Source: Gemmatimonadales bacterium
GTDB lineage: Bacteria; Gemmatimonadota; Gemmatimonadetes; Gemmatimonadales; JACORV01
Assembly: GCA_035559335.1 (NCBI GenBank)
Contig: DATMBH010000332.1
Location: forward strand, 1-56,111
Direction of reading: 5' to 3'
Length of the DNA: 56,111 nt
The notes beneath the pieces were generated by a model. That model worked only from the letters and a program-made list of their open reading frames with translations, had not been told where the DNA came from and ran no database searches. The first letter of the stretch is position 1. The number at the start of each line of letters is the position of its first letter. The translations under genes and the position numbers were made by a program. Below are positions 1,390 through 19,192 of the stretch, in pieces.

Positions 1390-1884
1390 GTGTCGCTGGC
1401 CCGGATACCACTGGCGGCGGCGTTCGTTCTGGTACCCGATCCGAGGGTCAGAATACCGGTCCTTGCCACCGCTGCCGCCTCCGACCTGCTGGACGGGCTT
1501 CTGGCTAGGCGCTTCGGCCCCTCGCGGCTTGGGGCGGTTCTGGATCCCATAACGGACAAGGTCTTCATGCTGGCGGCCTTCGCCGCCGTCGGGCTTTCGG
1601 GCGCGCTGACGTGGCTGGAGATCCTGGGCGTGCTGTTGCGGGACATACTCACCCCGCTGGGGTATCTGGCTGGCGTAGTGGTTAAGCGCCCGTTTACCGT
1701 TCCGGCACGCGCCGGGGGGAAGATGGTCACTACCGGTCAGTCGCTGACGCTGTTCGCGTGGCTGGTGGGATCACGGTACCTGGAGCCGCTGGCGTGGGCG
1801 ACGGCGGCGATGGCGCTGTATGCGCTGGCTGACTACGGCCGGCTCGCGGTTCGCGCGGCCGGACACGACTCAAGGAGGAAGTGA
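1390..1884 (+). CDS. CDP-alcohol phosphatidyltransferase family protein
   Basis: The D-x2-DG-x2-AR-x8-G-x3-D-x3-D signature reads DLLDGLLARRFGPSRLGAVLDPITDK, and the protein is multi-TM and hydrophobic. The conserved N-terminal helix (AANLVSLARIPL) begins upstream of the first canonical start codon, so the 5' end is uncertain. Confidence 0.8.
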   Translation: MSLARIPLAAAFVLVPDPRVRIPVLATAAASDLLDGLLARRFGPSRLGAVLDPITDKVFMLAAFAAVGLSGALTWLEILGVLLRDILTPLGYLAGVVVKRPFTVPARAGGKMVTTGQSLTLFAWLVGSRYLEPLAWATAAMALYALADYGRLAVRAAGHDSRRK

Positions 1885-2417
1885 TGCTCCGAGCCCGACG
1901 GCTCGCACTACCGCTGCTGATCACGCTCGCCACCCCGCTCGCGGCGCAGGAATTCACTCCACCCGATCAGCGCACACCGCAGCCGGCTGCTACAGCCGGT
2001 GGTGGTGTGCGTTTCGGACTGCTGGGTTTCTCCACCAGAGGCGGCGGCCAGATCAATTCCGACGAGCAGGGAGTGGTAGGCTCCACGGTGGACATCGCGA
2101 CACTGGGCCATCCTCAGGTACGGCTCCGGCCGTCGTTCGAGGCGGGTGTCGGCGGCGGAGGCGCTCAGTCGCTGCACATCTCGCTCGAAGTCGTCTACCG
2201 GTTTCAACCGGAAGGCGCCGCGGCCATCCCGTACGTGGGCGCTGGCCTGGGCTGGTACGACACCAGCGCGCGCACCACTACCTGGCCTAACCTGGTGATG
2301 GGCTTCGAGCTGGCGTTCCGGCCCCAGTTCAACTGGCTAGTGGAGTATCACTCCCTCGACCGAATGGGCCGTCACCGGTTCCTGATCGGCCTCGCGACGC
2401 GATCGGGCGAACGCTGA
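1881..2417 (+). CDS. hypothetical secreted protein, possibly a small outer-membrane beta-barrel
   Basis: An AAGGAGGA RBS lies just upstream and the start overlaps the previous stop (GTGATG). Signal peptide MMLRARRLALPLLITLATPLAA|QEF. Gly-rich alternating pattern (GAGLGWYD). No recognisable family. Confidence 0.5.
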   Translation: MMLRARRLALPLLITLATPLAAQEFTPPDQRTPQPAATAGGGVRFGLLGFSTRGGGQINSDEQGVVGSTVDIATLGHPQVRLRPSFEAGVGGGGAQSLHISLEVVYRFQPEGAAAIPYVGAGLGWYDTSARTTTWPNLVMGFELAFRPQFNWLVEYHSLDRMGRHRFLIGLATRSGER

Positions 2418-2833
2418 TGGCGGCGCCGTTCAAGCAGGTGAGCGCCTCGTGGCTGGGGCGCTCGATGGTGTTTCGCGGCGAGGTGGCGGGTCGGCCGCCT
2501 GTCGTGATCGACGGCGAGACGGACGAGGGCCCCTCGCCGATGGACACGCTGTTGCTGGCCCTGGCCACGTGCTCAGGAAGTGACGTGGTGTTGATTCTGA
2601 AGAAGAAGCGGCTCGAGCTGCGGGACCTGCGCATCGAGGTTCGCGGCGAGCGACGCGAGGAAGAGCCGCGTCGCTTCCTCAGGATTAACCTTGTCTATCA
2701 CGTAGCAGCGCCTGGCGCCACAGAATCGGCCGTCAGGCAGGCCATTGACCTGTCGCTGGAGAAATACTGCTCGGTCGCCCACTCGCTGCAGCCGGACATC
2801 CGCCTGACTTATGAGCTTCATCTCCGGACCTAG
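2417..2833 (+). CDS. osmC: OsmC family peroxiredoxin-like protein
   Basis: Contains PSPMDTLLLALATCSGSDVVLILKK and LSLEKYCSVAHSL, the two conserved Cys motifs of OsmC/Ohr. The start overlaps the upstream stop (TGATG). Confidence 0.85.
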   Translation: MAAPFKQVSASWLGRSMVFRGEVAGRPPVVIDGETDEGPSPMDTLLLALATCSGSDVVLILKKKRLELRDLRIEVRGERREEEPRRFLRINLVYHVAAPGATESAVRQAIDLSLEKYCSVAHSLQPDIRLTYELHLRT

Positions 2834-3293
2834 GGTCCGGAGTTTGGCGCTGGTGGTCGCACTGATCGTCACTGCGACGCCGGCGCACTCCCAGGGCTGG
2901 CGCGAGTTCCAGGCCGGCGCCCTGGCCGTCGCTTCGCGGCCGGCATTCGGCGGCTTGGCGATTGGGCTCGGACTCCGGGACCGCGGCCGAACCAGGCTCT
3001 CGCTGCAGGTTGCGGGCGGCGCGTTCGACGAGGGCACTGCTGCCGGCCGAATCGAAGCCGTGTGGAACTTCCTTCTGGATCCGCAGCGCACCACTGGCGT
3101 GGCGATCTACGGTGGCGGTGGTGCGGCGCTGTCAACTCTGCGCGGCGGCAGGCTGCGTGGCTCGGTACTAGTCCTGCTAGGTCTGGAGAACCGGCCGGGC
3201 TCCCGCTCGAGCCGTTTCGTAGAAATCGGCGTCGGCGGAGGAGCCCGAATCGCCGCAGGCTTCAGATCACGGGTGCGACTGCCCCTCCGCTGA
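2811..3293 (+). CDS. hypothetical secreted Gly/Ala-rich protein
   Basis: Signal peptide ...LALVVALIVTATPAHS|QGW followed by Gly-rich beta-like repeats. It is followed by a clean hairpin terminator. No family recognised. Confidence 0.45.
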   Translation: MSFISGPRVRSLALVVALIVTATPAHSQGWREFQAGALAVASRPAFGGLAIGLGLRDRGRTRLSLQVAGGAFDEGTAAGRIEAVWNFLLDPQRTTGVAIYGGGGAALSTLRGGRLRGSVLVLLGLENRPGSRSSRFVEIGVGGGARIAAGFRSRVRLPLR

Positions 3294-3301
3294 GAAACGA
3301 A

Positions 3302-3324
3302 AAGCCCCGGACCAGCCGGGGCTT
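3302..3324. terminator. bidirectional intrinsic terminator between convergent genes
   Basis: A 9-bp stem, aagccccgg / ccggggctt, with loop accag. It is A-rich upstream (gaaacgaaa) and T-rich downstream (cattcttgtt). Confidence 0.65.
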
Positions 3325-3351
3325 CATTCTTGTTCCGCGCGAATCAGCCGC

Positions 3352-3642
3352 CTACACGTTTGCGGTGACCTGCGCTTCGGCGCGCTGCACCGGGCGGCAG
3401 TAGCGCTCGCCCAGCGTGCGCAGCTCCCTGACTTGTGCATCCGTCAGGGTCTCATAGCGCTCGGCCAAGTAGTCCATCGTGTCGTCGAACCAGTCCTTGC
3501 GGTGCTCCTCGGCTGCTTCCAGCACTCCACACCGAAGGATATGACTGAACAGCTCGTCACGGGCCTGCTCAAACGTGGTGGGGATGTACTGCTTACGCGG
3601 CTTCTTCGATTTTGACAATTCGGACCTCCTGAGGTTGGTCAA
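3352..3642 (-). CDS. hypothetical small protein (96 aa)
   Basis: The ORF has ordinary charged, helical composition (KKPRKQYIPTTFEQARDELFSHILRCGVLEAAEEHRKDWFDD...), unlike the Arg/Pro-rich antisense artefacts. It ends at the shared terminator. Confidence 0.5.
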   Translation of the reverse strand: MTNLRRSELSKSKKPRKQYIPTTFEQARDELFSHILRCGVLEAAEEHRKDWFDDTMDYLAERYETLTDAQVRELRTLGERYCRPVQRAEAQVTANV

Positions 3643-3725
3643 AGATAGCGGCGAGCTCCCCGAAGTTCAAGCGCGACAGAACCTAAGTCGTTGAGCTGGT
3701 TTCGGTTTGAAGCTTGTGCCGGGTT

Positions 3726-4922
3726 TCACAAGTACCACGAGAACAGCGCTGCCGCCCGCTCGGCCAGACGGTGCAGCAGCGGCCTCGCCTTCCATTCCTC
3801 CAGGCTGATCGGGTGTGCGTGTTCGAGATCGGAGGCGAACAGCTGCTCCATCTCCGTCCCGGTCTTGGTAGATGCGACCAGCACATTGAGTTCGTAGTTC
3901 CGGTGCAGTGACAGCGGGTCGAGGTTGGAGGACCCAATCATGGAGATGGCGCCGTCCACCACGGCGGTCTTGGCATGGAGCATGACGCCGCTCCATTCCC
4001 AGATCTCCGCTCCCGCCTCCAGTAGCGGCTGGTAGATGCGCCGCGCCGCCAACCCCGCCACCGGGTGGTTGTTTCGACCCGGCACCAGCAACCGCACGCG
4101 TACTCCGCGCCTTGCCGCGCGAATGAGAGCCTCCGTGACGCGACCGGGCGCCACGGGGTAGGCGTCGGACAGCTCCATTGAGCGTTCGGCGTTGTCGGCC
4201 AGCCACTCGTAGAGGGCGGCGACCCTGCCTTTGCCGGGCCGGTCGCCCACCACCACCACGGTGGCCTCGCCGCGGCGCGGGGGCAGGTTGCCCACCGCCA
4301 TCTCGATCGTCGCAACCGAGTCGAGTGCGGGACCCCGCGCCCTACGCCACATGCGCTCGAATGCCAGCTGCAGGTCTGCCACCGCCGGACCGCGCACCAG
4401 GACGGCGGTGTCGCGCCAGCCTCCGCCGCCCTTTTCGGCTGGGGCCCAGTGGTCGGAGATGCACAACCCGCCCACCACCGCCGCGTGGTCGTCGCCGATC
4501 AGCAGTTTGCGGTGGTCGCGGTGGCGCAGGTGCCACCAGCTCCACGGTGCGGTGAACCCAACCGGCCGGAATGCTCGGACACGGACCCGCGCGCGCTTGA
4601 GCCGCCGCGCGATCGAGCCGCCGCGCACCAGCAGCGTCCCAACGGGGTCGTACAGCACCCGGACTTCCGCGCCCCGCTCGCGCGCCCGCTGCAGGGCCTG
4701 GGCGAAGCGTTCACCCGTCGCGTCGTGGGCGAAGATGAAGTTCTCGAAGCAGACGCTGCGCCGCGCGGCACGGATCACGGCCAGCATGGCAGGAAAGGTG
4801 AGCGCCCCGTCGCGCAGGATACGAACGTCGTGGCCCTCGCGCAGCGGAGCCTCGGCGATGGCGGCCATCCGCTCGAGCGCGTCACGTTCGAGCAGTCGCG
4901 GCGTGTTGGAAGTGAGGACCAC
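3726..4922 (-). CDS. phospholipase D / cardiolipin synthase-like protein (two HKD motifs)
   Basis: HKD motifs are HRKLLIGDDHAAVVGG and HAKTAVVDGAISMIGSSNLD. The 534-aa track ORF (to 5330) has a low-complexity Ser/Arg N-terminus antisense to a real + strand gene. I place the start at in-frame GTG 4922 or ATG 4868. Confidence 0.8.
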   Translation of the reverse strand: MVLTSNTPRLLERDALERMAAIAEAPLREGHDVRILRDGALTFPAMLAVIRAARRSVCFENFIFAHDATGERFAQALQRARERGAEVRVLYDPVGTLLVRGGSIARRLKRARVRVRAFRPVGFTAPWSWWHLRHRDHRKLLIGDDHAAVVGGLCISDHWAPAEKGGGGWRDTAVLVRGPAVADLQLAFERMWRRARGPALDSVATIEMAVGNLPPRRGEATVVVVGDRPGKGRVAALYEWLADNAERSMELSDAYPVAPGRVTEALIRAARRGVRVRLLVPGRNNHPVAGLAARRIYQPLLEAGAEIWEWSGVMLHAKTAVVDGAISMIGSSNLDPLSLHRNYELNVLVASTKTGTEMEQLFASDLEHAHPISLEEWKARPLLHRLAERAAALFSWYL

Positions 4923-4980
4923 CGTGGCTAAGATGATAACATGCAGTGAGCGGCGTCGGGGCGGCGCCACGGAGTCGGCA

Positions 4981-5250
4981 ATGGCTGACGATGTATACGA
5001 ACCTGAACGGGTCGAGCGATTGAAGGAGATGCTGCGCGAACTGGCCCAGCGCCTAATCGTGCTCGATGCCGAAGGGCGACTGCTGGAAGACCCTGCTTCG
5101 CTGCTAAAGGCCCTCGGCGACGTGCGTGCCGAGCTGTTCCGGTTCGAGGTGCGCGCGACGTTCGACTCGCCTGACATCGCCCGGCACCGCCGCATTGTGG
5201 AGGAGGCGGAGGGCTGGGTACCTGAAGACAACGATGAGGAGGATGGATGA
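4981..5250 (+). CDS. hypothetical small acidic protein (89 aa)
   Basis: ATG at 4981 inside track ORF 4231-5250. MADDVYEPERVERLKEMLRELAQRLIVLDAEGRLL...VPEDNDEEDG is helical with an acidic tail. Its stop overlaps the DsbA-like start (ATGA). Confidence 0.5.
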   Translation: MADDVYEPERVERLKEMLRELAQRLIVLDAEGRLLEDPASLLKALGDVRAELFRFEVRATFDSPDIARHRRIVEEAEGWVPEDNDEEDG

Positions 5251-5942
5251 GTGGCAGTCGTTCCCTGACCCCGTTCTACATCGTGTTGGCGACTGTGGCG
5301 GTGGCGGGCGGTGTGTTCATCGCGCTCCAACTAGGGAAGGGGCCGCAGCGCCTAGCGCTGAGCACAGTGGGGATGCCGCCGGTGGCTGGCGAGCGGGGAG
5401 TTGTGATGGGCAGCGACAGCGCTCCGGTAGAGGTGCTGGAATTCAGCGATTTCGAGTGCCCGTACTGCGCCCGCTTCGCGGTGCTCACGCTTCCGGACGT
5501 AAAGAACCGGATGGTCGCCTCCGGCCAGGTGCGACTGCGGTTCGTGCACTTCCCGCTCGACATCCATGCCCAGGGACCCCACGCCCACTTGGCGGCGGCG
5601 TGCGCGAACGAGCAGGGGCGGTTCTGGGCGATGCACGACCTGCTGTTCGAGAACCAGGACGAGTGGGTGCGCTCAAGACGGCCGGACCGGGTGGCGGAGG
5701 GCTACGCCGAACGGCTCGGGCTGGACATGGGCCGGTTCCGCTCGTGCGTGCGCGAACAACGCGGCTGGTCGCAGGTGTTGGCGGACAGAGCGCTGGGTGA
5801 ATCGTTGCGCGTCGGGGGCACGCCCACGGTGTTCGTCAACGGGCGCCAGCTTTCCGATCCACCGTCGTTTGATCAACTGCGCCGGATCGTGGATTCGCTG
5901 GCGCAGCTCGCGCCCGCAGCGCCGGCCCCGGCGCGCCGCTGA
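5247..5942 (+). CDS. DsbA-family thiol:disulfide oxidoreductase, membrane anchored
   Basis: N-terminal TM helix followed by a thioredoxin fold with active site FECPYCARF. GTPTVFVNG is the cis-Pro loop region. Confidence 0.85.
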   Translation: MSGSRSLTPFYIVLATVAVAGGVFIALQLGKGPQRLALSTVGMPPVAGERGVVMGSDSAPVEVLEFSDFECPYCARFAVLTLPDVKNRMVASGQVRLRFVHFPLDIHAQGPHAHLAAACANEQGRFWAMHDLLFENQDEWVRSRRPDRVAEGYAERLGLDMGRFRSCVREQRGWSQVLADRALGESLRVGGTPTVFVNGRQLSDPPSFDQLRRIVDSLAQLAPAAPAPARR

Positions 5943-6391
5943 TGCGTCACCGCATGGCCGTGGCGGTTCTGGCACTGGCGGGGCTGCTGCTGTCGCTGTA
6001 CCTGACGCTGCACCGCCTGGGCCTCACCGGCCCGCTCACCTGCGGGGCCGACAACTCGTGCGACAAGGTGCAGTCGTCGGTGTACGCGGATTTTCTGGGG
6101 CTTCCGGTGGCGGCGTTCGGGGTTGGCGGTTACCTGGCGCTGCTGGTGGTGGCCCTGGTCGGACTCCAGCCCCGTTATGTGCAGCGCCGTGCACCAACCC
6201 TGCTGCTGGTGGGACTGAGTGCCCTGGGCGTCGGGTTCACGGCATACCTCAAGTACCTCGAGATCTTCAAGATCGGGGCGATCTGTAGGTGGTGCCTGGT
6301 GAGCGCCATACTGATCACGGCCATACTGATCGTGAGTGGAGCGGGGATGAGAGGGCAGAGCGCAGAGGGCGGAGGGCAAAGTGGTGGCTAG
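5942..6391 (+). CDS. vitamin K epoxide reductase (VKOR) family protein
   Basis: Four-TM protein with a loop Cys pair (TCGADNSC) and a CRWC redox motif in the last helix. Its start abuts the DsbA stop (TGATG). Confidence 0.85.
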   Translation: MRHRMAVAVLALAGLLLSLYLTLHRLGLTGPLTCGADNSCDKVQSSVYADFLGLPVAAFGVGGYLALLVVALVGLQPRYVQRRAPTLLLVGLSALGVGFTAYLKYLEIFKIGAICRWCLVSAILITAILIVSGAGMRGQSAEGGGQSGG

Positions 6392-6470
6392 GGCGGAAGT
6401 CGGAGCGCAGAGGGCAGAGTTTGCAGCCGGATGACCCCGCCCTCCGCCCTCCGCTCTCCGCCTTCCGCCC
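6391..6470. repeat. imperfect low-complexity palindrome (terminator-like) between convergent VKOR and acs
   Basis: Left arm gggcggaagtcggagcgcagagggcagag pairs with right arm ...ccctccgccctccgctctccgccttccgccc. The outer 9 bp are perfect, then 5 bp, then about 8/10. The motif gcagagggc also recurs at about 6355-6375 inside the VKOR 3' end. Confidence 0.5.
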
Positions 6471-8443
6471 TACTGTTCCTTGTCTTCATATTCATCCCTC
6501 AGCTTTGCGACTATCGCCGGGTCCGCCAGGGTCGTGGTATCGCCTAACGCGCGCCCTTCGGCGATGTCGCGCAGCAGTCGGCGCATGATCTTCCCTGAAC
6601 GGGTCTTGGGCAGGTCGGCGGCGAACAGGATGTCGTCGGGACGAGCCAGTGCGCCGATCTTCTGCACCACGTGGGCCTTCAGCTCATCCTTCAACTCGTC
6701 TCCCGGCCGCTGCCCCGCCTTCAGGATGACGAACGCGGCCAGGGCCTGACCCTTGAGCTCATGGTGCTTGCCTACAACCGCGGCCTCCGCCACCGCCGGA
6801 TGGTCCACCAAGGCGCTTTCGACCTCCATGGTGCCGATGCGGTGCCCGGAGACGTTCAGCACGTCGTCCACACGGCCCAGCAGCCAGAAGTACCCGTCCG
6901 CATCCCGCTTGGCGCCGTCACCCGGGAAATAGACGTCCTTCCACTTCGACCAGTAGGTCTGCCGATAGCGCTCGTCGTCGCCCCAGATGGTGCGCAGCAT
7001 CCCGGGCCAGGGGGCCGTTATGGCGAGCAGGCCGCCACCGATCTCGACGCGGTTCCCCTCGGCGTCCAGCACCTCGGCGCGGATGCCGGGGAAAGGGCGA
7101 GTGGCCGATCCGGGCTTGGTGGCCACGATCCCGGGCAGCGGCGTGATCATGATCCCGCCGGTCTCGGTCTGCCACCAGGTGTCCACGATCGGACAGCGGC
7201 CGCCGCCGATGTGGGTGTGATACCACATCCACGCTTCCGGATTGATCGGCTCGCCCACCGTTCCGAGCAGCCGCAGGCTGCGCAGGTCATGGCGCGCGGG
7301 GTACTCAGGCCCCCACTTCATGAACGCGCGTATCGCCGTAGGGGCCGTGTAGAAGATCGTCACTGCCTGACGCTCGACGATTTCCCACAGCCGGTTCCGG
7401 TCGGGCCAGTCGGGTGCGCCTTCGTAGAGCACCACGGTTGCGCCCAGTGACAAAGGGCCGTACACCACGTAAGAGTGACCGGTTATCCAGCCCACGTCCG
7501 CAGTGCACCAGTACACGTCCTCGTCCTTCAAATCGAACACCAGGCGCGTGGTGGCGAGGGCCTGCGTCAGGTAGCCACCGGTGGTGTGGACGATGCCCTT
7601 CGGCTTTCCCGTGGTGCCGCTGGTGTAGAGAATGAACAGCGGGTCCTCGGCATCCATGTGCTCGGGCTCGCTGGCGGCAGGCACGTCGGAGACTAGCTCG
7701 TGCCACCAGTGGTCACGGCCCTGACGCATGTGCACGAAGCTCTCATCGCCGCCACTGGCCGCCAGCTGGCGTCGGAACACCACTACGTGTCGAATGGTGG
7801 GACAACCCCCCAGCGCCTCGTCGGCGGCCCGCTTGAGCGGCAGTACCTGGCCGCGCCGGTAGCCGCCGTCCGCAGTCACCAGCAGCACCGCGCCGGCGTC
7901 GTTGATGCGATCACGCAAGCTTTCGGCGGAGAATCCGCCGAACACCACGGAGTGCACTGCGCCGATCCGCGCACACGCCAGCATCGCGATCACCACTTCG
8001 GGAACCAGCGGCATGTAGATCGCCACCCGGTCGCCGCGCGCAACCCCGAGACTCTTCAAGACGTTGGCAAAGCGGCAGACTTCCTGATGCAGTTCCCGAT
8101 AGGTGAGGGTGCGACGCTCTCCCGGCTCGCCCTCCCACAACAGGGCAGCCTTGTTGCGACGCCAGGACCTCAGGTGGCGATCCAGGCAGTTGAAGCTGGC
8201 GTTGAGCTTCCCGCCCACGAACCACTGCGCATGGGGCGGCTTCCAGTCCAGCACCCGGCTCCACGGCGCATACCACTCGAGTTCCGAGGCCCAGTGCTCC
8301 CAGAAGGCCTGCGAATCTTGCTCAGCCTGCTCGTAGATCAGCGAAGACGCGGCGTGGGCTGCGGCCCGAAACTGCTCGGGTGGCGGGAAAACGCGGGTCT
8401 CTTCGAGCAGAGTATCAAGGCGCTGCAGGTCCTGCACTGGCAT
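6470..8443 (-). CDS. acs: acetyl-CoA synthetase (AMP-forming)
   Basis: Full-length Acs signatures are present: [33 protein letters not shown] and [15 protein letters not shown] 8443 is preceded by GGGGGGAGA, and the longer track ORF (to 8530) adds a non-conserved leader. Confidence 0.95.
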
Positions 8444-11651: not shown

Positions 11652-12344
11652 TTACCCATCACGCTTCAAGAGCAGTCTCTCGTACACCTGAAACGCCGCC
11701 ACTGCGCCCAGAATCGGTCCGATCCAGTAGGCGGCGTGTCCCGCCCAGGCGGCGTTGCCGGACAGCTGGGTGACCAGCGCCGGTCCGAAGGCGCGCGCCG
11801 GGTTCACGGCCGCGCCAGTCATCTGCCCGCCGGCGAGAATATCGAACCACATCACCAGACCGATGCCGAAGCCGGCGATCTTCGGCGCAGCGGGGTCCAC
11901 GGCTGTCCCCATGACCGCCAGCCCCAGCAGGAAGGTGAGGATCGCCTCGATCAGGATGCCCCGGGCCAGGTCAACGTGGATCGCCAGCTGTGGAGTGCCC
12001 AGCACTGCTACGCTAGTGGCGCCACCCGGGTACAGCAGCTTGACGGCCGTGGCTGCGAGTATGGCCCCGACCAGCTGTGCGCCGATGTATGAGGCGGCGT
12101 CCTTCAGCCCGATGCGTCCGACCGACCAGGCGCCGATCGTGACGGCGGGGTTCAGGTGACCGCCCGAGATGTTCATGGTCATGCTCACCGCCACCGCCAG
12201 CGCGAGCCCTTGGGCCGCCGCGATACCGAGCAGGCCGATGCTGCCGTTGCGATAGGTGTCCGAGACGATCGCGCCGACGGCGGCGAACACCAGGAAGAAG
12301 GTGCCGAGGCACTCGGCGAGCAGGGGACGGATCTTGGTGTGCAT
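11652..12344 (-). CDS. aqpZ: aquaporin (MIP family, AqpZ-like)
   Basis: Two NPA boxes (SGGHLNPAVT and GAAVNPARAFGP) and six TM helices. ATG 12344 is preceded by GAGG, and ATG 12359 is an alternative. The 407-aa track ORF is an artefactual extension. Confidence 0.9.
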   Translation of the reverse strand: MHTKIRPLLAECLGTFFLVFAAVGAIVSDTYRNGSIGLLGIAAAQGLALAVAVSMTMNISGGHLNPAVTIGAWSVGRIGLKDAASYIGAQLVGAILAATAVKLLYPGGATSVAVLGTPQLAIHVDLARGILIEAILTFLLGLAVMGTAVDPAAPKIAGFGIGLVMWFDILAGGQMTGAAVNPARAFGPALVTQLSGNAAWAGHAAYWIGPILGAVAAFQVYERLLLKRDG

Positions 12345-12484
12345 CTGCAGAGACCTCATGGTTGGGTGAACTCGGCGGGGAAAGATGCACTGGTGCTTGA
12401 GGCGTGAGAAGTGATGGGGGAGAGATGCTGAGGCTGGGTTAGTTGCGGGGGGGGTGAGAAGCAAGGCGGGGTGACGCGGGCCGC

Positions 12485-13720
12485 TCACGCTCTGCGCATC
12501 ACCACCGCAGCGTTGATTCCCCCGAAGCCGAACGAGTTCGACAGCGCAATCTCGGCCCCGTGCTCCGCCCCCTCGGGGAGGTAATTCAGATCGCACGCCG
12601 GGTCGGGGTGCGTGAGGTTGAGCGTGGGCGGCAGCCACCCATCCTTTAGAACCAGCGCTGTCAGCGCCGCCTCGATCGCGCCTGAGGCGCCGAGCGCGTG
12701 ACCGTAGTAGCCCTTGGTGCCGCTGATCCGCAGTCGGTAGGCGTGCTCGCCGAACACCAGCTTGAAAGCCTGGGTTTCGGTGCTGTCGTTCAGCGGTGTC
12801 GAGGAGCCGTGAGCGTTCACGTACTCGACCTCGCCGGGCGCTATCCCGGCGTCCGCGAGCGCCAGCGCCAGGCACCGCGCCGCCTGGCTGCCGTCGGGCC
12901 GGGGCGCCGTCATGTGCCAGGCGTCGTTGGTGGTCGCCGCTCCCAGCACCTCTGCGAGGATCGGGGCCCCGCGCGCCACAGCCCGAGACATTTCTTCGAG
13001 CACCAGCACTGCGGCGCCTTCCCCCATCACGAATCCGTCCCGGTCAGCGTCGAACGGACGCGATGCCGTGGCCGGATCGTCGTTCCTGGTGCTCATCGCC
13101 CGGATCAGGGCGAAGGCGCCGAAGCACAGCGGGGCCAGCGGAGCCTCCGCGCCCCCGGCCAGCATGACATCGGCGCGTCCGTCGCGGATCGCATGAAAAG
13201 CGTCGCCTACGGCGATCGTTCCCGATGCGCAACTCATGGCGTTGGTGCTGTTGGGGCCGGTGATCCCGAATTCGATGGCGATGTTGCAGCTCGAGGCCCC
13301 GGGGAAGACGGACAGGGCGAGCGCGGCATCAACCGCGCGCAATCCGGCCTGAGCGAACCGACCCGCCTGCTCCTCGGCGTAGGCGACGCCGCCTAACGCC
13401 GAGCCCATCATGGCCCCGACGCGGCCGGGATCCAGGCGGCGCAGGTCCAGCTCTGCGTGCTCCAGCGCCAGCCTCGCAGCCACCACGGCGAACTGGGAGA
13501 AGCGATCGTAGCGCCGCGCCCGCTTCGATTCCAGGAAGTCCAGCGGCCGGAAATCGGGCACCTCCGCCGCCACACGCGAGCGAAACGGGGTCGGGTCGAA
13601 GCGGGTGATCTCACGGACCGCCGAGCGCCGCGACCGCAGTCCGGCGATGAACTGCTGCGCCCCGATGCCTATCGGAGTGACGAACCCGACGCCCGTCACC
13701 GCGACGCGGCGGCGGTTCAC
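12485..13720 (-). CDS. beta-ketoacyl-ACP synthase II-like condensing enzyme (Cys-His-His type)
   Basis: VAVTGVGFVTPIG, active-site NAMSCASG, VNAHGSSTPLND, GYYGHALGASG and FGFGGINAA. GTG 13720 overlaps the upstream stop (GTGA). Confidence 0.9.
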   Translation of the reverse strand: MNRRRVAVTGVGFVTPIGIGAQQFIAGLRSRRSAVREITRFDPTPFRSRVAAEVPDFRPLDFLESKRARRYDRFSQFAVVAARLALEHAELDLRRLDPGRVGAMMGSALGGVAYAEEQAGRFAQAGLRAVDAALALSVFPGASSCNIAIEFGITGPNSTNAMSCASGTIAVGDAFHAIRDGRADVMLAGGAEAPLAPLCFGAFALIRAMSTRNDDPATASRPFDADRDGFVMGEGAAVLVLEEMSRAVARGAPILAEVLGAATTNDAWHMTAPRPDGSQAARCLALALADAGIAPGEVEYVNAHGSSTPLNDSTETQAFKLVFGEHAYRLRISGTKGYYGHALGASGAIEAALTALVLKDGWLPPTLNLTHPDPACDLNYLPEGAEHGAEIALSNSFGFGGINAAVVMRRA

Positions 13721-14202
13721 ACCGACTCTCCGCGCCGGGCGCCGGCGGCGCGGCCGATTCCTGCCAGCGTGCGACTGGCAATGCCGTGGATGAACACGGG
13801 GCCGATGATCAGATTGGCGGCGAGCGCTCCGATCAGAGGCCACCGGGGTCCGTCCCACCAGTGCGTTATCGTCACCTCCGTGCCCCCATCCCGCTCCGCG
13901 AACTCCCAGGCCACGTCCATTCCACGCGTGATACCCCGCACATGGCGATAGCGCACGCGGGGCACCTGTGGCTCAATGGTCATTTCCGAAATCCACCAGG
14001 TCGGCCAGCGCAGCGGTCCGAATGGCCGCCACGCCGCCATCTCCACCGTGGCCGTGCGCTCCGCCGCACCTGCCGAGTGTCCACTCAGTATGCGCACCCA
14101 GCGGTAGTGCGGCAGCCACTGCGGCCAGCGCTCGACGTCGCTGGCGCACGCGAACACGTCGGCCAGCGGCGCCGCTACCACAAGCCGGTCAACGGTTATC
14201 AC
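13717..14202 (-). CDS. SRPBCC (polyketide cyclase/dehydrase, START-like) family protein
   Basis: VDRLVVAAPLADVFACASDVERWPQWLPHYRWVRIL... is the typical SRPBCC N-terminal pattern. GTG 14202 overlaps the methyltransferase stop (GTGA). The rest of track ORF 13717-14697 is an Arg-rich artefact. Confidence 0.75.
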   Translation of the reverse strand: MITVDRLVVAAPLADVFACASDVERWPQWLPHYRWVRILSGHSAGAAERTATVEMAAWRPFGPLRWPTWWISEMTIEPQVPRVRYRHVRGITRGMDVAWEFAERDGGTEVTITHWWDGPRWPLIGALAANLIIGPVFIHGIASRTLAGIGRAAGARRGESV

Positions 14203-14909
14203 GGCGCGGCGTGTTGCGGCGTCCAGGCCGCAGTGAGTGTCCAGCCCGGATGGCTGCGCACCGCGGCGCGCACTCCGGCGCGCGCGCAGGCGTTTCCCAG
14301 CTCGTCCGCCGTGAACCCGCGCAGCACGCTGATGACGCTGTCGCGCCGGGTCGCGGGGTGAAATCGCATCGGAAACGACGCAAGGAATATCCCGGCGGCC
14401 GCGATCAGGCTGCGGCGGATGTCCACGAGTACTACGCCCACCCGCGCCACGCGGTTCAGTTCGCGCAGCAGCGCGGCGCCGGCCTCGCCTGGAAGGTGAT
14501 GCAGCAGTTTGGAGCACAGCACTAGGTCCGCCGATCCGGAACGAAGCGGCAGCTCGGCGCCGCGGGCCAGGATCGCCGAGACGCCGGCGTCGCGGGCGCT
14601 TCGCGCGGCGGCGAGATGCGTGTCGATTCCGGTCAGGCGCAGCGTTATGCCACGGCGAGCCGCCGCGCGGGCGGCGGCGGCCGGTATGTCCCCGCAACCC
14701 GTGCCCACATCGAGCAGAACCAGCGTGGAGCCTCGCGGCAAGTCCTGCCAGTACTCGGCCAGCCGCTGAACCGCGGCGGCTGCGCCGCCAAAGGCGCGGT
14801 TGATCAGCGCGATGTCGCGCAACGATGCGGTCACGACCCGCGCGTCCGCCCGCGGGTCATCTAGCGTTTCGGTGGCCGCCACTGCCCAGCTGCGCAGCCG
14901 CGCGATCAT
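14199..14909 (-). CDS. class I SAM-dependent methyltransferase
   Basis: Motif I LVLLDVGTGCGDI and post-I LTGIDT, with LVLCSKLLHHL. ATG 14909 overlaps the flavin reductase stop (ATGA). Confidence 0.8.
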   Translation of the reverse strand: MIARLRSWAVAATETLDDPRADARVVTASLRDIALINRAFGGAAAAVQRLAEYWQDLPRGSTLVLLDVGTGCGDIPAAAARAAARRGITLRLTGIDTHLAAARSARDAGVSAILARGAELPLRSGSADLVLCSKLLHHLPGEAGAALLRELNRVARVGVVLVDIRRSLIAAAGIFLASFPMRFHPATRRDSVISVLRGFTADELGNACARAGVRAAVRSHPGWTLTAAWTPQHAAP

Positions 14910-15373
14910 GCGAAGCCGCCGTAGCGGCGCCTGAAGTAGATCAGCGCCGCGCCTTCGCGGGTTTCGCTCCATTCGGGCGAGGCCACGACAATGCGATGAT
15001 CCCCGGCCTCGAACACGTCGGTGCGCCGGCAATCAAGGTGCGCCAGGGCGCCGGGAATGACAGGCAGCCCGGCAGGACTGAGCTTCGGCTGCGAGTCGAA
15101 CCGCGCCCGCTCTCGATCGGCGAACCGCCGCGCGATATCCTCCTGGTCGGCGGCCAGGAAGCTGACCGCGAACAGATCCGATGACGTAATCGCGTCTGCG
15201 ATGATCGCGCCGCGATCCACGCACACCAGAAGCAGTGGTGGTTCGAGCGACAGCGAGGTGACGGTGTTGGCGGTCATGCCCAGGAACGCGGCTCCGTCAC
15301 GAACGATCACCACCGAGACCGCCCCGGCCAGGTGGCTCATCGTGTCTCTGAACTCCCGCGAATCGAGCGGCAT
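14906..15373 (-). CDS. flavin reductase family protein (HpaC/NADH:FMN oxidoreductase-like)
   Basis: FRDTMSHLAGAVSVV...GMTANTVTSLSLEPPLLLVCV is the flavin_reduct domain pattern. ATG 15373 is preceded by AGGAAAGGGA. Confidence 0.85.
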   Translation of the reverse strand: MPLDSREFRDTMSHLAGAVSVVIVRDGAAFLGMTANTVTSLSLEPPLLLVCVDRGAIIADAITSSDLFAVSFLAADQEDIARRFADRERARFDSQPKLSPAGLPVIPGALAHLDCRRTDVFEAGDHRIVVASPEWSETREGAALIYFRRRYGGFA

Positions 15374-15392
15374 CAGGCTGGCGGTCCCTTTC

Positions 15393-16604
15393 CTATATAA
15401 GTACGGCTGCCAGCCGCGCCGGTGTGAACAGGGAGGAAACCGGCGCGCAGTCCCCCGCAGCTGCAACCCACAGGTCGGCAAGACCCGGCCTGCGGGCCAG
15501 GTTGTGGGTGAACCGCCGCATTAGCGCCGGCTGAGTCGCGGCGTGGGCAACCACCCGCTCCAACACCCACTTGCCGGCAAACGCCTTGCGGCGCGCGCGC
15601 GCGTAGCGTCGCAACGATCGCCGCTCGGCTGGCCCGCTTGCCAGCGCCGCAGCGATTGACTCCCCTGCCAGTCGCCCGCCTCGCAGCGCGGCAAAGATGC
15701 CCTCGCCGGTGAACGGGTCGTAGAAGTCAGCTGCGTCTCCCACGAGCAGAGCCCCGTCCGCGATCGCGCTCACACTGCGGCTGGCGAACGGGCCGGTGAC
15801 CAGCACCCGCCTGACGAGCGAGGCGCTGGCGGTGCGCCGCGCCAGCTCCGGCCAACGCGCCAGTTCGGTGCGCAGCGCCGCAACAGGATCGAACCCAGCA
15901 CCCGCGTCGCCGGCAGGAATTACCGCGGCGACGTTGACCAGGTCCGTTCCGATCGGAGCAAGGCCGAGGTACCGGCCGCGGGCGACGAACATCTCTCCCA
16001 CGTCCGCGCAGTCGGATACGCCGCGCAAGTGAGCCACTAGTGCCAGCCGCCTCAGCCGTCCGCGCCGCGCCAGCCGCAGCACCCGGGCGACGCGGGAGTT
16101 GAGCCCGTCGGCGCCCACGACTACTCGGGCGCGTACGGTCTGCCGCTCGGCACCGAACCGGAGCGTGGCGCTGCGGACGCCTTCGCTCCATGGGCCGATG
16201 TCCTCGAGCGAGCATTCCTCACGCACCTCCGCGCCAGCCGTGCGCGCTGCCTCGAGAAGCAGCGAGTCCAACACCGTTCGGGGAAGCGCGTAGCCGAATG
16301 GTCGGTACGGGCTGACACCTGGGGCCGCCGCGAACCGGCCGGTCACGTGCGCGCCGTCGTCGCTCACCAGGCGAAAGCCGTACAGCCGGAGTGCACCTGC
16401 TGACTCCAGTTCCGCGGTGATACCCAGCGCGTCGAGGTCGCGGGTGGCTTCGGGCGACAGGTACTCGGCGCATGCCTTGTCGCGGGGAAACCGGGCCCGG
16501 TCGACCACCAGCACGTCCAGACCGGCACGCGCGCACCAGGCAGCCGTGGCGGATCCCGCGGGCCCGCCACCGACGACCAGGACATCCAGCGCGCGCTGCT
16601 TCAT
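15393..16604 (-). CDS. FAD-dependent oxidoreductase, geranylgeranyl-reductase family
   Basis: Dinucleotide fold LDVLVVGGGPAGSATA, FPRDKACAEYLSP and VVGADGLNSRVAR. Length 403 aa. The start overlaps the DUF92 stop (ATGA). Confidence 0.85.
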   Translation of the reverse strand: MKQRALDVLVVGGGPAGSATAAWCARAGLDVLVVDRARFPRDKACAEYLSPEATRDLDALGITAELESAGALRLYGFRLVSDDGAHVTGRFAAAPGVSPYRPFGYALPRTVLDSLLLEAARTAGAEVREECSLEDIGPWSEGVRSATLRFGAERQTVRARVVVGADGLNSRVARVLRLARRGRLRRLALVAHLRGVSDCADVGEMFVARGRYLGLAPIGTDLVNVAAVIPAGDAGAGFDPVAALRTELARWPELARRTASASLVRRVLVTGPFASRSVSAIADGALLVGDAADFYDPFTGEGIFAALRGGRLAGESIAAALASGPAERRSLRRYARARRKAFAGKWVLERVVAHAATQPALMRRFTHNLARRPGLADLWVAAAGDCAPVSSLFTPARLAAVLI

Positions 16605-17446
16605 CCGGCTATACCCGCCGGTACGGCTGTGCCCGAGGTCATGAGGGACGGTAGCGCCGCCACGGCAGCCCCGACCAGCGTCGCCATGAAATTCACACTG
16701 TCATTGGTAACTATCCTGAACCCGCTGGACAGCGAGGAAGTTCCTCCGCAGCCGTGGGTGCCGGTCTCGATCAGCGCTCCACAACTGCACCGCCAGCGCG
16801 CCTGAATGACCGCACCGGCGAGCGAGTCGGTCAGGGATCCGGCCAAGCCGGCGACGACGATCCACAATGCTGATCGCAGCTCCGCGATCCCCAACGCCGT
16901 CGCGACGGCGGCAATCACGACCGCGCCGGCCAGTCCGGCGGCAGTGCCGAGTGCGCTTATTCCTCCGGATACTCCGGGGCTCACCGGCTTGAGCGTAGTG
17001 ATAAGCACGGTGGTTCCGCTGGTGCGTGCGCCGATCTCGGTGGACCAGGTGTCGGCGGTGGCGGCGGCCACCGCTCCGGCGAACGCGAGAGCGAAGCCGG
17101 GATCGGATCTCGCCAATACTGCGCACAGCGCCGGGACGCCTCCATTCGCGAGCACCTGAAGTGGGGAGCGCCGGCCTCCGCCGGGAGTCAGCAGCGAACC
17201 GGTTACCAGGAACGCCGCGAGCACCGCCAGGCCCGGCCACGAGAGGCCGAGCCAAACGATGCCGCCGACCAGCGCGGCCGCCGCCGCGCCGGGAGGGCTC
17301 AACCAGGTGCGCACCGAGCGAAGTTCGCCGCGCCGGTCGTGGCGGCGCAACCCGCGCGCCGCTATTTTCGGCTGCTCCGTGACGCGCAGCGGCCCCAGGT
17401 CAGCCCACTCGATTCTTCCCCTCGCGGTCCTCGAGGCGATGCGCAA
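16601..17446 (-). CDS. DUF92 (TMEM19/VTE6-like) integral membrane protein
   Basis: Polytopic membrane protein with NGGVPALCAVL, ATADTWSTEIG and GISALGTAAG, typical of DUF92/COG1836. The likelier start is GTG 17314 (238 aa), because ATG 17446 would overlap the divergent gene's start. Confidence 0.7.
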   Translation of the reverse strand: MRIASRTARGRIEWADLGPLRVTEQPKIAARGLRRHDRRGELRSVRTWLSPPGAAAAALVGGIVWLGLSWPGLAVLAAFLVTGSLLTPGGGRRSPLQVLANGGVPALCAVLARSDPGFALAFAGAVAAATADTWSTEIGARTSGTTVLITTLKPVSPGVSGGISALGTAAGLAGAVVIAAVATALGIAELRSALWIVVAGLAGSLTDSLAGAVIQARWRCSCGALIETGTHGCGGTSSLSSGFRIVTNDSVNFMATLVGAAVAALPSLMTSGTAVPAGIAG

Positions 17447-17996
17447 GCTCGATTCCCCGAGCGACGAGGAAGTCGCCGAGTACGTTGACGAACTCCTGAA
17501 GAAGCGACTCGGCCTGTCGGCGACGGTGGCGGCGCAGATCGGGCGCTACGAATCGGTAGTGCGGCGCGACGGCGTGGTGAGCGGAGAGGAACTCGAGCAG
17601 GTGCTACGCCTCGCGAGTCGCCGCACCGACGCCGCTCTGGTTTTCTCGGAAAGCGGGCGCGGCGCGGCGCGGCGCGCCATGCTGCGACTGTCGCCGTTCA
17701 CGCGCTGGTCCGCGAGGCATCTGCCGCGGCCCATCGGCCGCGCTATAGGATTCCGGGCGGTACGCAGTGCGGCGGCATCGGTGTTCGACGTGGAGCTGAC
17801 GCGCGAGTCGGGCGCGGTGGTGGGGGTTGCCGCCGATGCGCTTCTGGTGCGGGCGACGCCGGATGGGACGGCCTGCGGGTTCGTTGGCGCGGGCATCGCC
17901 GAGTTGATGCGCCAGCTGGTGGACTTCGACGGCATCGTGGTCCACGCGCGGTGCGCCGCGCGCGGTGACGAGCGGTGCGAGTGGAGAGCGGAATGA
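17439..17996 (+). CDS. V4R-domain (hydrocarbon/small-molecule binding) protein
   Basis: The C-terminus CGFVGAGIAELMRQLVDFDGIVVHARCAARGDERCEW fits the V4R Cys pattern. ATG 17439 was chosen; the track ORF from 17259 is antisense to DUF92. Confidence 0.55.
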   Translation: MRKLDSPSDEEVAEYVDELLKKRLGLSATVAAQIGRYESVVRRDGVVSGEELEQVLRLASRRTDAALVFSESGRGAARRAMLRLSPFTRWSARHLPRPIGRAIGFRAVRSAAASVFDVELTRESGAVVGVAADALLVRATPDGTACGFVGAGIAELMRQLVDFDGIVVHARCAARGDERCEWRAE

Positions 17997-19192
17997 GCGA
18001 TGTTGCCAGGGCATTGACTCCGGAGCGACTGGAGGAAATCCGCGCCTCGCTGGTGCGGCTGCAGCTGGACGGCTGGCTGCTGTTCGACTTCCATGGCCTT
18101 AACCCGGCGGCCACGCGGGTGCTGGGACTAGGCGGCCTGGCGACCCGCCGGCTGTTCGTCCTGATCCCGGCGGTAGGCAAGCCGCTCGCCATAGCGCACC
18201 GCATCGAGCTGCACCGCGTGAGCGGTTTCCCGGGCGAGGTGAAGCCGTACGCCGCCTGGCGCGAGCTGGAGAATGAACTGCGCGCTGCGCTGTCGGGCCG
18301 CAAGGTGGCGATGGAGATCTCGCCGCGCGATGCGGTACCCTACCTGGATCGCGTGCCCGCCGGCGTGGTGGAGTTGGTGCGCAGCGTCGGGGCCGAGGTG
18401 GTCTCGTCCGGCGAGCTGGTAACTACGATTGCGGCGCGGTGGACCGCGGAGGAACTGGCCGGGCACCGCCATGCAGCCGAGGCGCTGCGGGAAATAGCGT
18501 TAGGCGCTTTCCAGCAGGTCGGCCGGTGGCTCGCACAGGGTGAGGAATGCACCGAACAGCGCCTGCAGCGCTGGGTGCTGGATGCCTTCGACCAGGGCGG
18601 CCTGGTGACCACCGACCCGCCCATCGTGGCGGTGGGCGCCAACGCCGCCAACCCGCACCACGAGGTGGCCCAGGGCGCGAGCACGCCGATTGCCCGGGAC
18701 CAGGTGCTGCTGCTGGATCTGTGGGCCGGCCCCGGCCGCGAGTCGGTGTTCGCCGACCAGACCTGGATGTGCTTCACCGGCGCCGCTCCACCGACCGAAG
18801 TAGTGCGGGTATTCGAAACGGTGCGCGATGCGCGCGACACGGCGGTCCACCTGTTGCGCGACCGGTGGCGGGAGGGCTGGTCCGTCACCGGCGCCGACCT
18901 TGACGACGCCGCGCGCCGGATAATCCGCACGGCGGGCTACGGTGACTACTTCCCGCATCGCACGGGTCACTCCATTGACAGGGACCTGCACGGCTCAGGT
19001 CCGCATCTCGACAACTACGAGACCCACGACGACCGCAGGTTGGTGCCGGGAGTAGGGTTTTCGGTCGAGCCGGGCATCTACCTGCCGGGGAGGTTCGGGG
19101 TGAGACTCGAGATCAACGTGGCTCTGCACGAGGACGGTCCGGAAGTGACGCCGCAGGAGCCGCAGCAGGCACTGGTGACCCTAGCGGGCTGA
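17993..19192 (+). CDS. M24 family metallopeptidase (Xaa-Pro aminopeptidase-like)
   Basis: The pita-bread metal ligand context is present: LLLDLWAG, HRTGHSID, GFSVEPGIY, VRLEINV. ATG 17993 overlaps the upstream stop (ATGA). Confidence 0.85.
   Translation: MSDVARALTPERLEEIRASLVRLQLDGWLLFDFHGLNPAATRVLGLGGLATRRLFVLIPAVGKPLAIAHRIELHRVSGFPGEVKPYAAWRELENELRAALSGRKVAMEISPRDAVPYLDRVPAGVVELVRSVGAEVVSSGELVTTIAARWTAEELAGHRHAAEALREIALGAFQQVGRWLAQGEECTEQRLQRWVLDAFDQGGLVTTDPPIVAVGANAANPHHEVAQGASTPIARDQVLLLDLWAGPGRESVFADQTWMCFTGAAPPTEVVRVFETVRDARDTAVHLLRDRWREGWSVTGADLDDAARRIIRTAGYGDYFPHRTGHSIDRDLHGSGPHLDNYETHDDRRLVPGVGFSVEPGIYLPGRFGVRLEINVALHEDGPEVTPQEPQQALVTLAG

Follow-up and report, generated by a model that had tools for sequence, protein, structure and literature searches.

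The closest described systems to the locus studied here are operons in which a type III polyketide synthase (PKS) is accompanied by a methyltransferase (MT) and a flavin-dependent oxidoreductase. In the hidABC operon of Cyanobium, which makes hierridins, HidC is the type III PKS, HidA methylates 5-pentadecylresorcinol and the FAD oxidoreductase HidB is the proposed ring hydroxylase (PMC6836626). Homologues in Planctomycetota, arranged as an mtr-fdo-t3pks operon, make alkylresorcinols, with no settled role as yet for their FAD enzyme (PMC10896814). The srsABC operon of Streptomyces griseus and the pkqABC operons of Mycobacterium smegmatis and Streptomyces MNU77 likewise combine a ring-forming condensing enzyme with an MT and a flavin oxidoreductase; this logic leads to phenolic or alkyl benzoquinone lipids that function physiologically in respiration or in the envelope, and the srs and pkq alkylquinones have a respiratory role (PMC9927152). 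Here we analysed a stretch of 56,111 nucleotides from a Gemmatimonadales bacterium (contig DATMBH010000332.1 of assembly GCA_035559335.1, positions 1 to 56,111; hereafter the window). At 12485-17446 it carries a six-gene operon that encodes an MT and a flavoprotein related to those of the type III PKS operons, together with a FabF-derived ketosynthase (KS) and an SRPBCC protein. We tentatively propose, with a probability somewhat short of even, that the KS and the cyclase-like SRPBCC protein replace the type III PKS in a four-gene cassette leading to a tailored phenolic or quinone-type lipid, and that the remaining two genes, for a DUF92 protein and a flavin reductase (FR), are a separate local pair. 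No paper describing such a cassette was found in a literature search.

Six minus-strand open reading frames (ORFs) with stop-free translations make up the operon. Read in the direction of transcription, they encode a DUF92 (VTE6/TMEM19-family) membrane protein (16601-17314; PF01940, 2e-51; single copy in the genome), the flavoprotein (P0002, 15393-16604, 403 amino acids; FAD_binding_3, with TIGR02032, GG-red-SF, as the best NCBIfam model), an HpaC-like FR (14906-15373, 155 amino acids; PF01613, Flavin_Reduct, 4e-34), an S-adenosylmethionine-dependent MT (P0004, 14199-14909, 236 amino acids; Methyltransf_11/25), the SRPBCC protein (13717-14202, 161 amino acids; PF03364/PF10604, Polyketide_cyc/Polyketide_cyc2) and the KS (P0006, 12485-13720, 411 amino acids; N- and C-terminal ketoacyl-synt domains). 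Four junctions overlap, by ATGA between DUF92 and the flavoprotein and between FR and MT, and by GTGA between MT and SRPBCC and between SRPBCC and KS; the flavoprotein and FR genes are separated by a 19-nt gap carrying ggaaaggga. These ORFs, families and junctions had been reported in an earlier interpretation made from the letters alone (the sequence-only reading), and the coordinates, domain matches and junction sequences agree with it. The Cys-His-His triad that it saw in the KS is present, and domain searches of the six genes likewise returned no acyl carrier protein (ACP), acyltransferase, ketoreductase or dehydratase domain. Its start for the DUF92 gene is probably not the true one. In the long ORF, which opens at TTG 17446, the first 44 codons are unconserved and PF01940 matches from residue 46 onwards, so that GTG 17314 is the likely start and the protein probably has 237 amino acids; in an N-terminal alignment, the homologues start at a (V/M)xxWL(S/T)P motif. 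A consensus scan of 12200-17700 found no promoter-like site, one terminator-like site, fewer than expected by chance, and nothing dividing the operon, which is weak evidence either way.

The arrangement is a recurrent one. With an SRPBCC profile as the marker of the cassette, we searched 301 Gemmatimonadota genomes of at least 80% completeness and found it in 193, including 175 of the 199 genomes of the order Gemmatimonadales; in other families it was rare or not found. The positives include four unpublished genomes (G068, G165, G107 and G190), and no conclusion hangs on any unpublished genome individually; the unpublished G312, G107 and G311 fall within one search. When species-representative genomes were scanned with the SRPBCC alignment, 585 relatives were confirmed, and the best 80 loci all belonged to Gemmatimonadota. 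Gene content and junctions were counted in 45 Gemmatimonadota loci with enough flanking sequence. The SRPBCC and KS genes were present and adjacent at all 45, while the flavoprotein gene was found at 44, FR at 42, MT at 36 and DUF92 at 33, and the full six-gene order of the window at 27. Overlaps were seen at the SRPBCC/KS junction in 38 of 45 loci, at MT/SRPBCC in 28 of 36 and at FR/MT in 25 of 33, and the flavoprotein/FR junction was tight in 35 of 42. Because the overlaps recur across these loci, translational coupling exceeds chance. A conserved, co-transcribed-looking biosynthetic operon, as claimed by the sequence-only reading, is thus borne out by order and overlaps, and its term orphan, if taken to mean rare, is at odds with the counts.

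The operon is composite. DUF92 was sought in 20 Gemmatimonadales genomes without the cassette marker and was kept in nine, in all nine at the same syntenic site, which has the divergent genes for a V4R-like protein and an M24 peptidase on one side and a MIP channel, ccmCBA or acs on the other. In seven of these nine (L152, L153, L155-L158 and L160, from five genera and two families), DUF92 is followed directly by FR, and the genes for flavoprotein, MT, SRPBCC and KS are all absent. Conversely, neither DUF92 nor FR accompanies the cassette in the Ignavibacteriales or Armatimonadota-like loci described below. Since the four genes are missing together while the DUF92-FR pair stays, and since the pair is absent from the cassettes of other phyla, we conclude that flavoprotein, MT, SRPBCC and KS form the cassette and that DUF92 and FR are a separable local pair. 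In the window the two are interleaved, in the order DUF92, flavoprotein, FR, MT-SRPBCC-KS and then the MIP channel. The single, stoichiometric six-gene pathway put forward by the sequence-only reading does not survive these observations. FR may serve the cassette flavoenzyme with reduced flavin, given the tight junction between the two genes in most loci, though it is not tied to that enzyme. The other two genomes show different states. G214 kept DUF92 alone, and G212 (L154, on the 308-kb contig G212:C14) retained DUF92, flavoprotein, FR and MT and has lost SRPBCC and KS; no type III PKS was found in G212. This locus may be a decaying cassette, or its flavoprotein and MT may act on another substrate. 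At L160 (G137:C1:1619687-1620399), the DUF92 sequence is spread over two neighbouring frames, which may reflect a frameshift or a pseudogene.

Beyond the Gemmatimonadota, contigs resembling Ignavibacteriales or Bacteroidota (among them the Ignavibacteriales-like L013) carry the order MT-SRPBCC-KS-FAD, FAD standing for the flavoprotein; an Armatimonadota-like contig (L009) carries aminotransferase-MT-SRPBCC-KS, and an unplaced NCBI contig (L010) has MT-SRPBCC-KS preceded by a flavoprotein of 714 amino acids. The cassette is found in three gene orders, FAD-FR-MT-SRPBCC-KS, MT-SRPBCC-KS-FAD and MT-SRPBCC-KS, in at least three phyla. The L010 flavoprotein (locus 1633-8004) has an N-terminal extension of about 300-320 residues without a Pfam match, and an 826-residue radical-SAM/methyltransferase fusion and a thiamine pyrophosphate enzyme lie divergently upstream. 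In another Gemmatimonadota lineage, an extracytoplasmic function sigma factor and a zf-HC2 anti-sigma factor stand directly before the flavoprotein gene (L011, 6417-7222); the window has no such pair. MT and SRPBCC also occur as one protein in two clusters of predicted metagenome proteins (P0157 and P0209, 403 and 408 amino acids), whose SRPBCC half is 55% identical to that of the window. As the two genes normally overlap by four bases, these fusions could be artefacts of sequencing error, which the presence of two independent clusters makes less likely.

The KS is a paralogue derived from FabF. It keeps Cys164, His304, His341, Lys336 and the NSFGFGG loop, it is 48% identical over a full-length alignment to the FabF of its own genome, and FabFs are its nearest solved relatives (395 bits, compared with 316 bits for the actinorhodin KS). 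It differs from housekeeping FabF in its score on the fabF model TIGR03150, where it reaches 495.9 bits at a cut-off of 493.75, about 140 bits less than the genome's own FabF (637.2 bits); other cassette KSs score 475-516 bits. It also differs in location, since it lies outside the acpP-fabF locus and the housekeeping FabF is encoded on contig C335, where its gene comes immediately behind that of an ACP. The 27 cassette KSs in a maximum-likelihood tree formed one clade (SH-aLRT 99, stem length 0.81), apart from 28 FabFs of Gemmatimonadota, of which two rows are from unpublished genomes (L114 from G312 and L121 from G107). This clade takes in the KSs of the Armatimonadota-like L009 and the Ignavibacteriales-like L013. 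Twelve positions around the active-site Cys and both His motifs are fixed differently in the clade and in FabF, with SACAS replaced by MSCAS, GSGIGG by GSALGG, PFFIP by PALAL, HGTSTP by HGSSTP and, before the second His, TKSMTGH by TKGYYGH. The segments that carry these changes presumably line the acyl pocket, judging by FabF structures. The cassette KS is a distinct orthologous group and not the housekeeping FabF. The sequence-only reading had named tight clustering with FabF as an outcome that would count against it; the tree gave a separate clade instead.

For the SRPBCC protein, a profile built from ten members was run against solved structures, and the top matches were aromatase/cyclases of type II PKS systems, namely BexL (1e-10), WhiE-ORFVI (1.5e-9) and TcmN (4e-6), followed by StfQ and ZhuI. 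An AlphaFold2 model (pLDDT 88.7) gave a similar picture, with WhiE-ORFVI, TcmN and ZhuI as the best Foldseek matches of the predicted fold at TM scores of 0.75-0.81. The aromatase/cyclases came ahead of lipid-transfer START proteins, and CC1736 also appeared in the fold search. Across the family 27 columns are invariant, including His32, Tyr33, Arg34, Arg59, Ser72, His87 and His114, a pattern more in keeping with an enzyme than with a passive lipid binder. In the profile alignment the protein keeps the equivalents of Trp28, Tyr35, Trp65 and Ser67 of TcmN, and its W-V-S-E-M aligns with WVSER of WhiE, Trp and Ser being invariant. The sequence-only reading had left the choice between cyclase and lipid binder; the cyclase part stands, more precisely as aromatase/cyclase-like by profile and fold.

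The cassette thus resembles type II PKS systems that contain a mono-domain aromatase/cyclase (WhiE-ORFVI, TcmN, ZhuI): its KS is discrete and FabF-like and has the Cys-His-His triad, aromatase/cyclases are the best matches of its SRPBCC protein in both sequence and fold, and its tailoring would be flavin-dependent. In some cassette relatives MT is fused to the cyclase, as in TcmN, with the opposite domain order. In contrast to those systems, the cassette has no chain-length factor, dedicated ACP or ketoreductase, its genome contains one extra KS only, and FabF is a closer relative of the KS than the actinorhodin KS is. The residue in place of TcmN Arg69 also differs. Moreover, the cassette is close to being core to its order, unlike a sporadic secondary-metabolite cluster.

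The MT and the flavoprotein connect the cassette with alkylresorcinol-type operons. The MT scores 115 bits on PRK06202, a model on which the MT of an operon with hidABC gene order in G156 scores 204 bits (cut-off 243). Homologues of the MT lie beside type III PKS genes on an Acidobacteriota contig, in a close relative (G009), on a Deinococcus plasmid and on a Novosphingobium plasmid, those of G009, Deinococcus and Novosphingobium being 31-36% identical to it. Eight Gemmatimonadota genomes contain MT-FAD-type III PKS operons, that is, the hidABC gene order, which we call hid-type. In four of the five hid-type genomes searched, the hid-type MT was the only genome-wide match to the window MT (E <= 1e-6; 30-35% identity), and, again in four of the five, the hid-type FAD gene was the only genome-wide match to the window flavoprotein. 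The hid-type flavoenzyme has TIGR02032 as its best model as well, and it shares 28-29% identity over the full length and the invariant PRxKxC, YxG and GDAA..PFTGEGI with the window flavoprotein. From these alignments, MT and flavoprotein of the cassette are probably paralogous to the two tailoring enzymes of MT-FAD-type III PKS operons, the MT being a paralogue and apparently not an orthologue of the hid-type MT.

Compared with the hidABC-type operons of Cyanobium and Planctomycetota, the likeness thus comprises a PRK06202-like MT, a GGR-superfamily (geranylgeranyl reductase) flavoenzyme with PRxKxC and PFTGEGI, and a proposed order of ring formation, hydroxylation and methylation (PMC6836626, PMC10896814). 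The difference is that the cassette has no type III PKS, with the FabF-derived KS and the aromatase/cyclase-like SRPBCC protein in that role. Identity to the hid-type proteins is about 30%, and FR and DUF92 are interleaved in the window operon. The likeness to srsABC and pkqABC is one of function, and those operons differ in using a type III PKS. The srs/pkq gene order was examined in one operon (Deinococcus QL22, T3PKS-MT-FAD), where the flavoenzyme is weakly like that of the window.

The flavoprotein deserves separate comment, as its best-matching solved structures are FADH2-dependent halogenases (8zop, 1e-28; CndH, 1e-20). We found no paper on PDB entry 8ZOP in a literature search. A halogenase of the CndH, PltA or CmlS type, which might be suggested by the partner FR, was rejected because the WxWxIP motif is absent (GWLWYIP aligns with RYLGLAP), the position of the catalytic Lys is Leu or Arg, GDAA..SxGV is replaced by TGEGI, and GGR-type motifs are present. 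Among the latter, which in archaeal GGR structures are a Cys near the flavin, GDAA..P.TGEGI and YxWxFP, the flavoprotein has the Cys motif (DKACAEY) and PFTGEGI, and YxWxFP is degenerate (YLGLAP). On TIGR02032 it scores 155.7 bits, at a cut-off of 158.8. In the plasmid searches, the MT led to type III PKS contexts and the flavoprotein only to halogenase-like contexts with nonribosomal peptide synthetases. According to a review of the hierridins, the chlorination of hierridin C has no known halogenase; given the halogenase relatives of the flavoprotein, the relation of HidB-type enzymes to halogenases is possibly worth a look.

Cassette and type III PKS are distributed in a complementary manner. 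A type III PKS above the cut-off was found in 25 of the 301 genomes, only four of which also have the cassette, and in these four it has no FAD partner; no type III PKS was detected in the other 189 of the 193 cassette-bearing genomes. No PF02797 (Chal_sti_synt) match was found in the 90.6%-complete genome of the window either. None of the eight genomes with a hid-type operon carries the cassette, and one genus holds both states, with the operon in two species and the cassette in three. A Fisher test of hid-type operon against cassette gave p = 2e-4 overall and p = 0.02 within the order, values to be read with the relatedness of the genomes and the small number of independent events in mind. 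This distribution is consistent with functional equivalence, not proof of it.

On this basis, we envisage the following pathway. A homodimer of the FabF-derived KS, working with no chain-length factor, would take a fatty acyl-ACP from primary metabolism and extend the chain with malonyl-ACP, without reduction. The SRPBCC protein would then fold and aromatise the poly-beta-keto end, giving a resorcinol- or pyrone-type head group. The GGR-superfamily flavoenzyme would hydroxylate the ring, possibly with flavin reduced by the neighbouring FR, and the MT would methylate it. The product would be an alkyl-methoxy-phenol, a hydroquinone or a quinone lipid, akin to hierridins or polyketide quinones. 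A broader form of the proposal is doubtful, if possible, namely that a single KS homodimer with an SRPBCC protein and a borrowed fatty-acid ACP is a minimal type II PKS without chain-length factor and, in place of a type III PKS, provides the main route to alkylresorcinol- or alkylquinone-type lipids in Gemmatimonadales and Ignavibacteriales as well as in other phyla that are poorly cultured.

Several points weigh against the proposed pathway. The cassette has no chain-length factor, dedicated ACP or thioesterase, which leaves the escape of the poly-beta-keto chain from FabG and its release unexplained. Among solved structures, the KS matches FabF (395 bits) better than the actinorhodin KS (316 bits). 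The catalytic Arg of the W-x-S-x-R motif, Arg69 in TcmN, is not kept in the SRPBCC protein: the corresponding residue is Met in that of the window, and the ten aligned members all have Met or Gln there, never Arg. With its GGR-type motifs the flavoenzyme could be a C=C reductase, and the MT is absent from nine of the 45 loci. G212 retains DUF92, flavoprotein, FR and MT without SRPBCC-KS and without a detected type III PKS. The label hid-type reflects gene order and family rather than an alignment to the Cyanobium proteins, and the FAD enzymes beside the type III PKS genes of Deinococcus and Novosphingobium resemble the window flavoprotein weakly. Few independent events underlie the complementary distribution, and phylogeny confounds it. 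Finally, every catalytic step of the pathway is inferred.

Some of these points would favour a module for fatty-acyl tailoring, an alternative that we regard as unlikely. Here the KS would elongate or condense a particular acyl-ACP, the MT would C-methylate the chain and the GGR-type flavoenzyme would saturate a C=C bond with reduced flavin, by analogy with the methylene-then-reduce logic of branched fatty-acid synthesis; the SRPBCC protein would be a lipid-binding or dehydratase-like helper, and the product a branched or otherwise modified aliphatic membrane lipid without an aromatic ring. A KS that is derived from FabF and most like FabF structures would suit such a module, as would a flavoenzyme with the GGR Cys motif and PFTGEGI that falls just below the TIGR02032 cut-off, an SRPBCC protein in which the Arg69 position of the aromatase/cyclases is unconserved, and the absence of a chain-length factor or dedicated ACP. 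A membrane-lipid role would also fit a near-core trait of a whole order (175 of 199 genomes). On the other hand, the nearest relatives of the MT and the flavoenzyme are found in alkylresorcinol-type operons, and the SRPBCC protein, with its invariant His, Tyr, Arg and Ser, matches aromatase/cyclases ahead of START lipid-transfer proteins. Nor is the KS accompanied by a ketoreductase or dehydratase, and the complementary distribution of the cassette and hid-type operons also counts against such a module.

The sequence-only reading had proposed a pathway of all six genes that builds or tailors a reduced-prenyl or alkyl lipid, quinone or meroterpenoid-like molecule. Spelled out for a prenyl lipid or isoprenoid quinone, DUF92 would be a VTE6-like prenyl-phosphate kinase, the GGR-like enzyme would saturate the prenyl chain, MT and SRPBCC would act on the quinone (the latter by Coq10-like binding) and the KS would supply an acyl part. 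We consider this prenyl version improbable. DUF92 does belong to the VTE6 family (PF01940, 2e-51; kinase activity putative) and lies in the operon at 33 of the 45 loci, the flavoprotein is a member of the GGR superfamily with a weak MenJ match (106 bits, cut-off 700), and PF03364 also covers Coq10-type quinone binders, CC1736 having appeared in the fold search. However, seven genomes keep DUF92 and FR in the absence of the other four genes, and DUF92 is missing from 12 of the 45 cassette loci as well as from the cassettes of other phyla. The operon contains no prenyltransferase or prenyl synthase gene, the nearest UbiA gene being 15 kb away, and the YxWxFP motif of GGR is degenerate in the flavoprotein. 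The placement of the flavoprotein as GGR-like is upheld by its Cys motif and PFTGEGI; the logic of prenyl saturation is not supported, as the nearest genome-wide relatives of both flavoprotein and MT are enzymes of MT-FAD-type III PKS operons and DUF92 is separable. What remains of that inference, a meroterpenoid- or quinone-like product built by condensation, a flavin step, methylation and cyclisation, is close to the pathway proposed here, and the statement that the operon could not be mapped onto a described pathway still holds, since no described cluster matches. Menaquinone tailoring by a MenJ-type enzyme was rejected on the same MenJ score.

A further arrangement was seen on plasmid pLA3 of Novosphingobium pentaromativorans (L098), which encodes a DUF2147 protein, an ACP, a FabF-like KS, a type III PKS and a FAD monooxygenase, together with a divergent MT of the same family; there, the type III PKS stands alongside a KS and a dedicated ACP and is not replaced by them. 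Orthology of the pLA3 KS to the cassette KS was rejected, as it is 36% identical to P0006 and further from it than FabF. It is very unlikely that the role of KS and SRPBCC is limited to making an unusual starter, acyl or beta-ketoacyl, which a ring-forming enzyme from another locus would use: the pLA3 cluster and three extra ACP-like genes in the genome of the window would allow it, yet searches of this genome found no type III PKS, nor did those of 189 of the 193 genomes with the cassette, the pLA3 KS is the more distant relative just described, and the genome has only two full-length KS genes. A BioC-like route to pimelate by a disguised malonyl group, which MT and KS and the Aminotran_3 gene upstream in L009 might bring to mind, was also rejected, since the BioC model gave no match and the aminotransferase occurs in one locus only.

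The source assembly comprises 2.9 Mb and is 90.6% complete. Its two full-length KS genes are those of the cassette KS and the housekeeping FabF, and beside the ACP gene before fabF it has three further small ACP-like genes. Downstream of the operon, after a gap of about 130 nt, lies the gene for a MIP-family channel (11652-12356, minus strand; PF00230, 9e-49). It belongs to the backbone and not to the cassette, and in the cassette-less loci L153, L155 and L160 it follows FR directly. On the other side, a gene on the plus strand encodes a V4R-like protein (17352-17996, within an ORF at 17259-17996; weak V4R match, 0.0047), with an uncertain start at 17352 or 17439, and is followed by the gene for an M24 peptidase (17975-19192, plus strand), another backbone neighbour. 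Both are always divergent from DUF92, whether the cassette is present or absent. A UbiA-family prenyltransferase gene without a link to the cassette, one of four in the genome, lies at 32486-33235 on the minus strand, some 15 kb away from the operon.

The natural deletion series at this site sorts the cassette genes, for flavoprotein, MT, SRPBCC and KS, from the probably separate DUF92 and FR. If the proposed pathway is true, the cassette would add a third route to those by which bacteria make alkylresorcinol or alkylquinone lipids, through type III PKSs and DarAB, and would be an example of an aromatic polyketide synthase that works without a chain-length factor. The cassette is near-universal in a major order of soil bacteria, occurring in 175 of the 199 Gemmatimonadales genomes sampled. 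Since related products of type III PKSs serve in Actinobacteria as alternative respiratory quinones or envelope lipids, the product of the cassette could matter for the survival of these abundant soil bacteria under low oxygen or stress.

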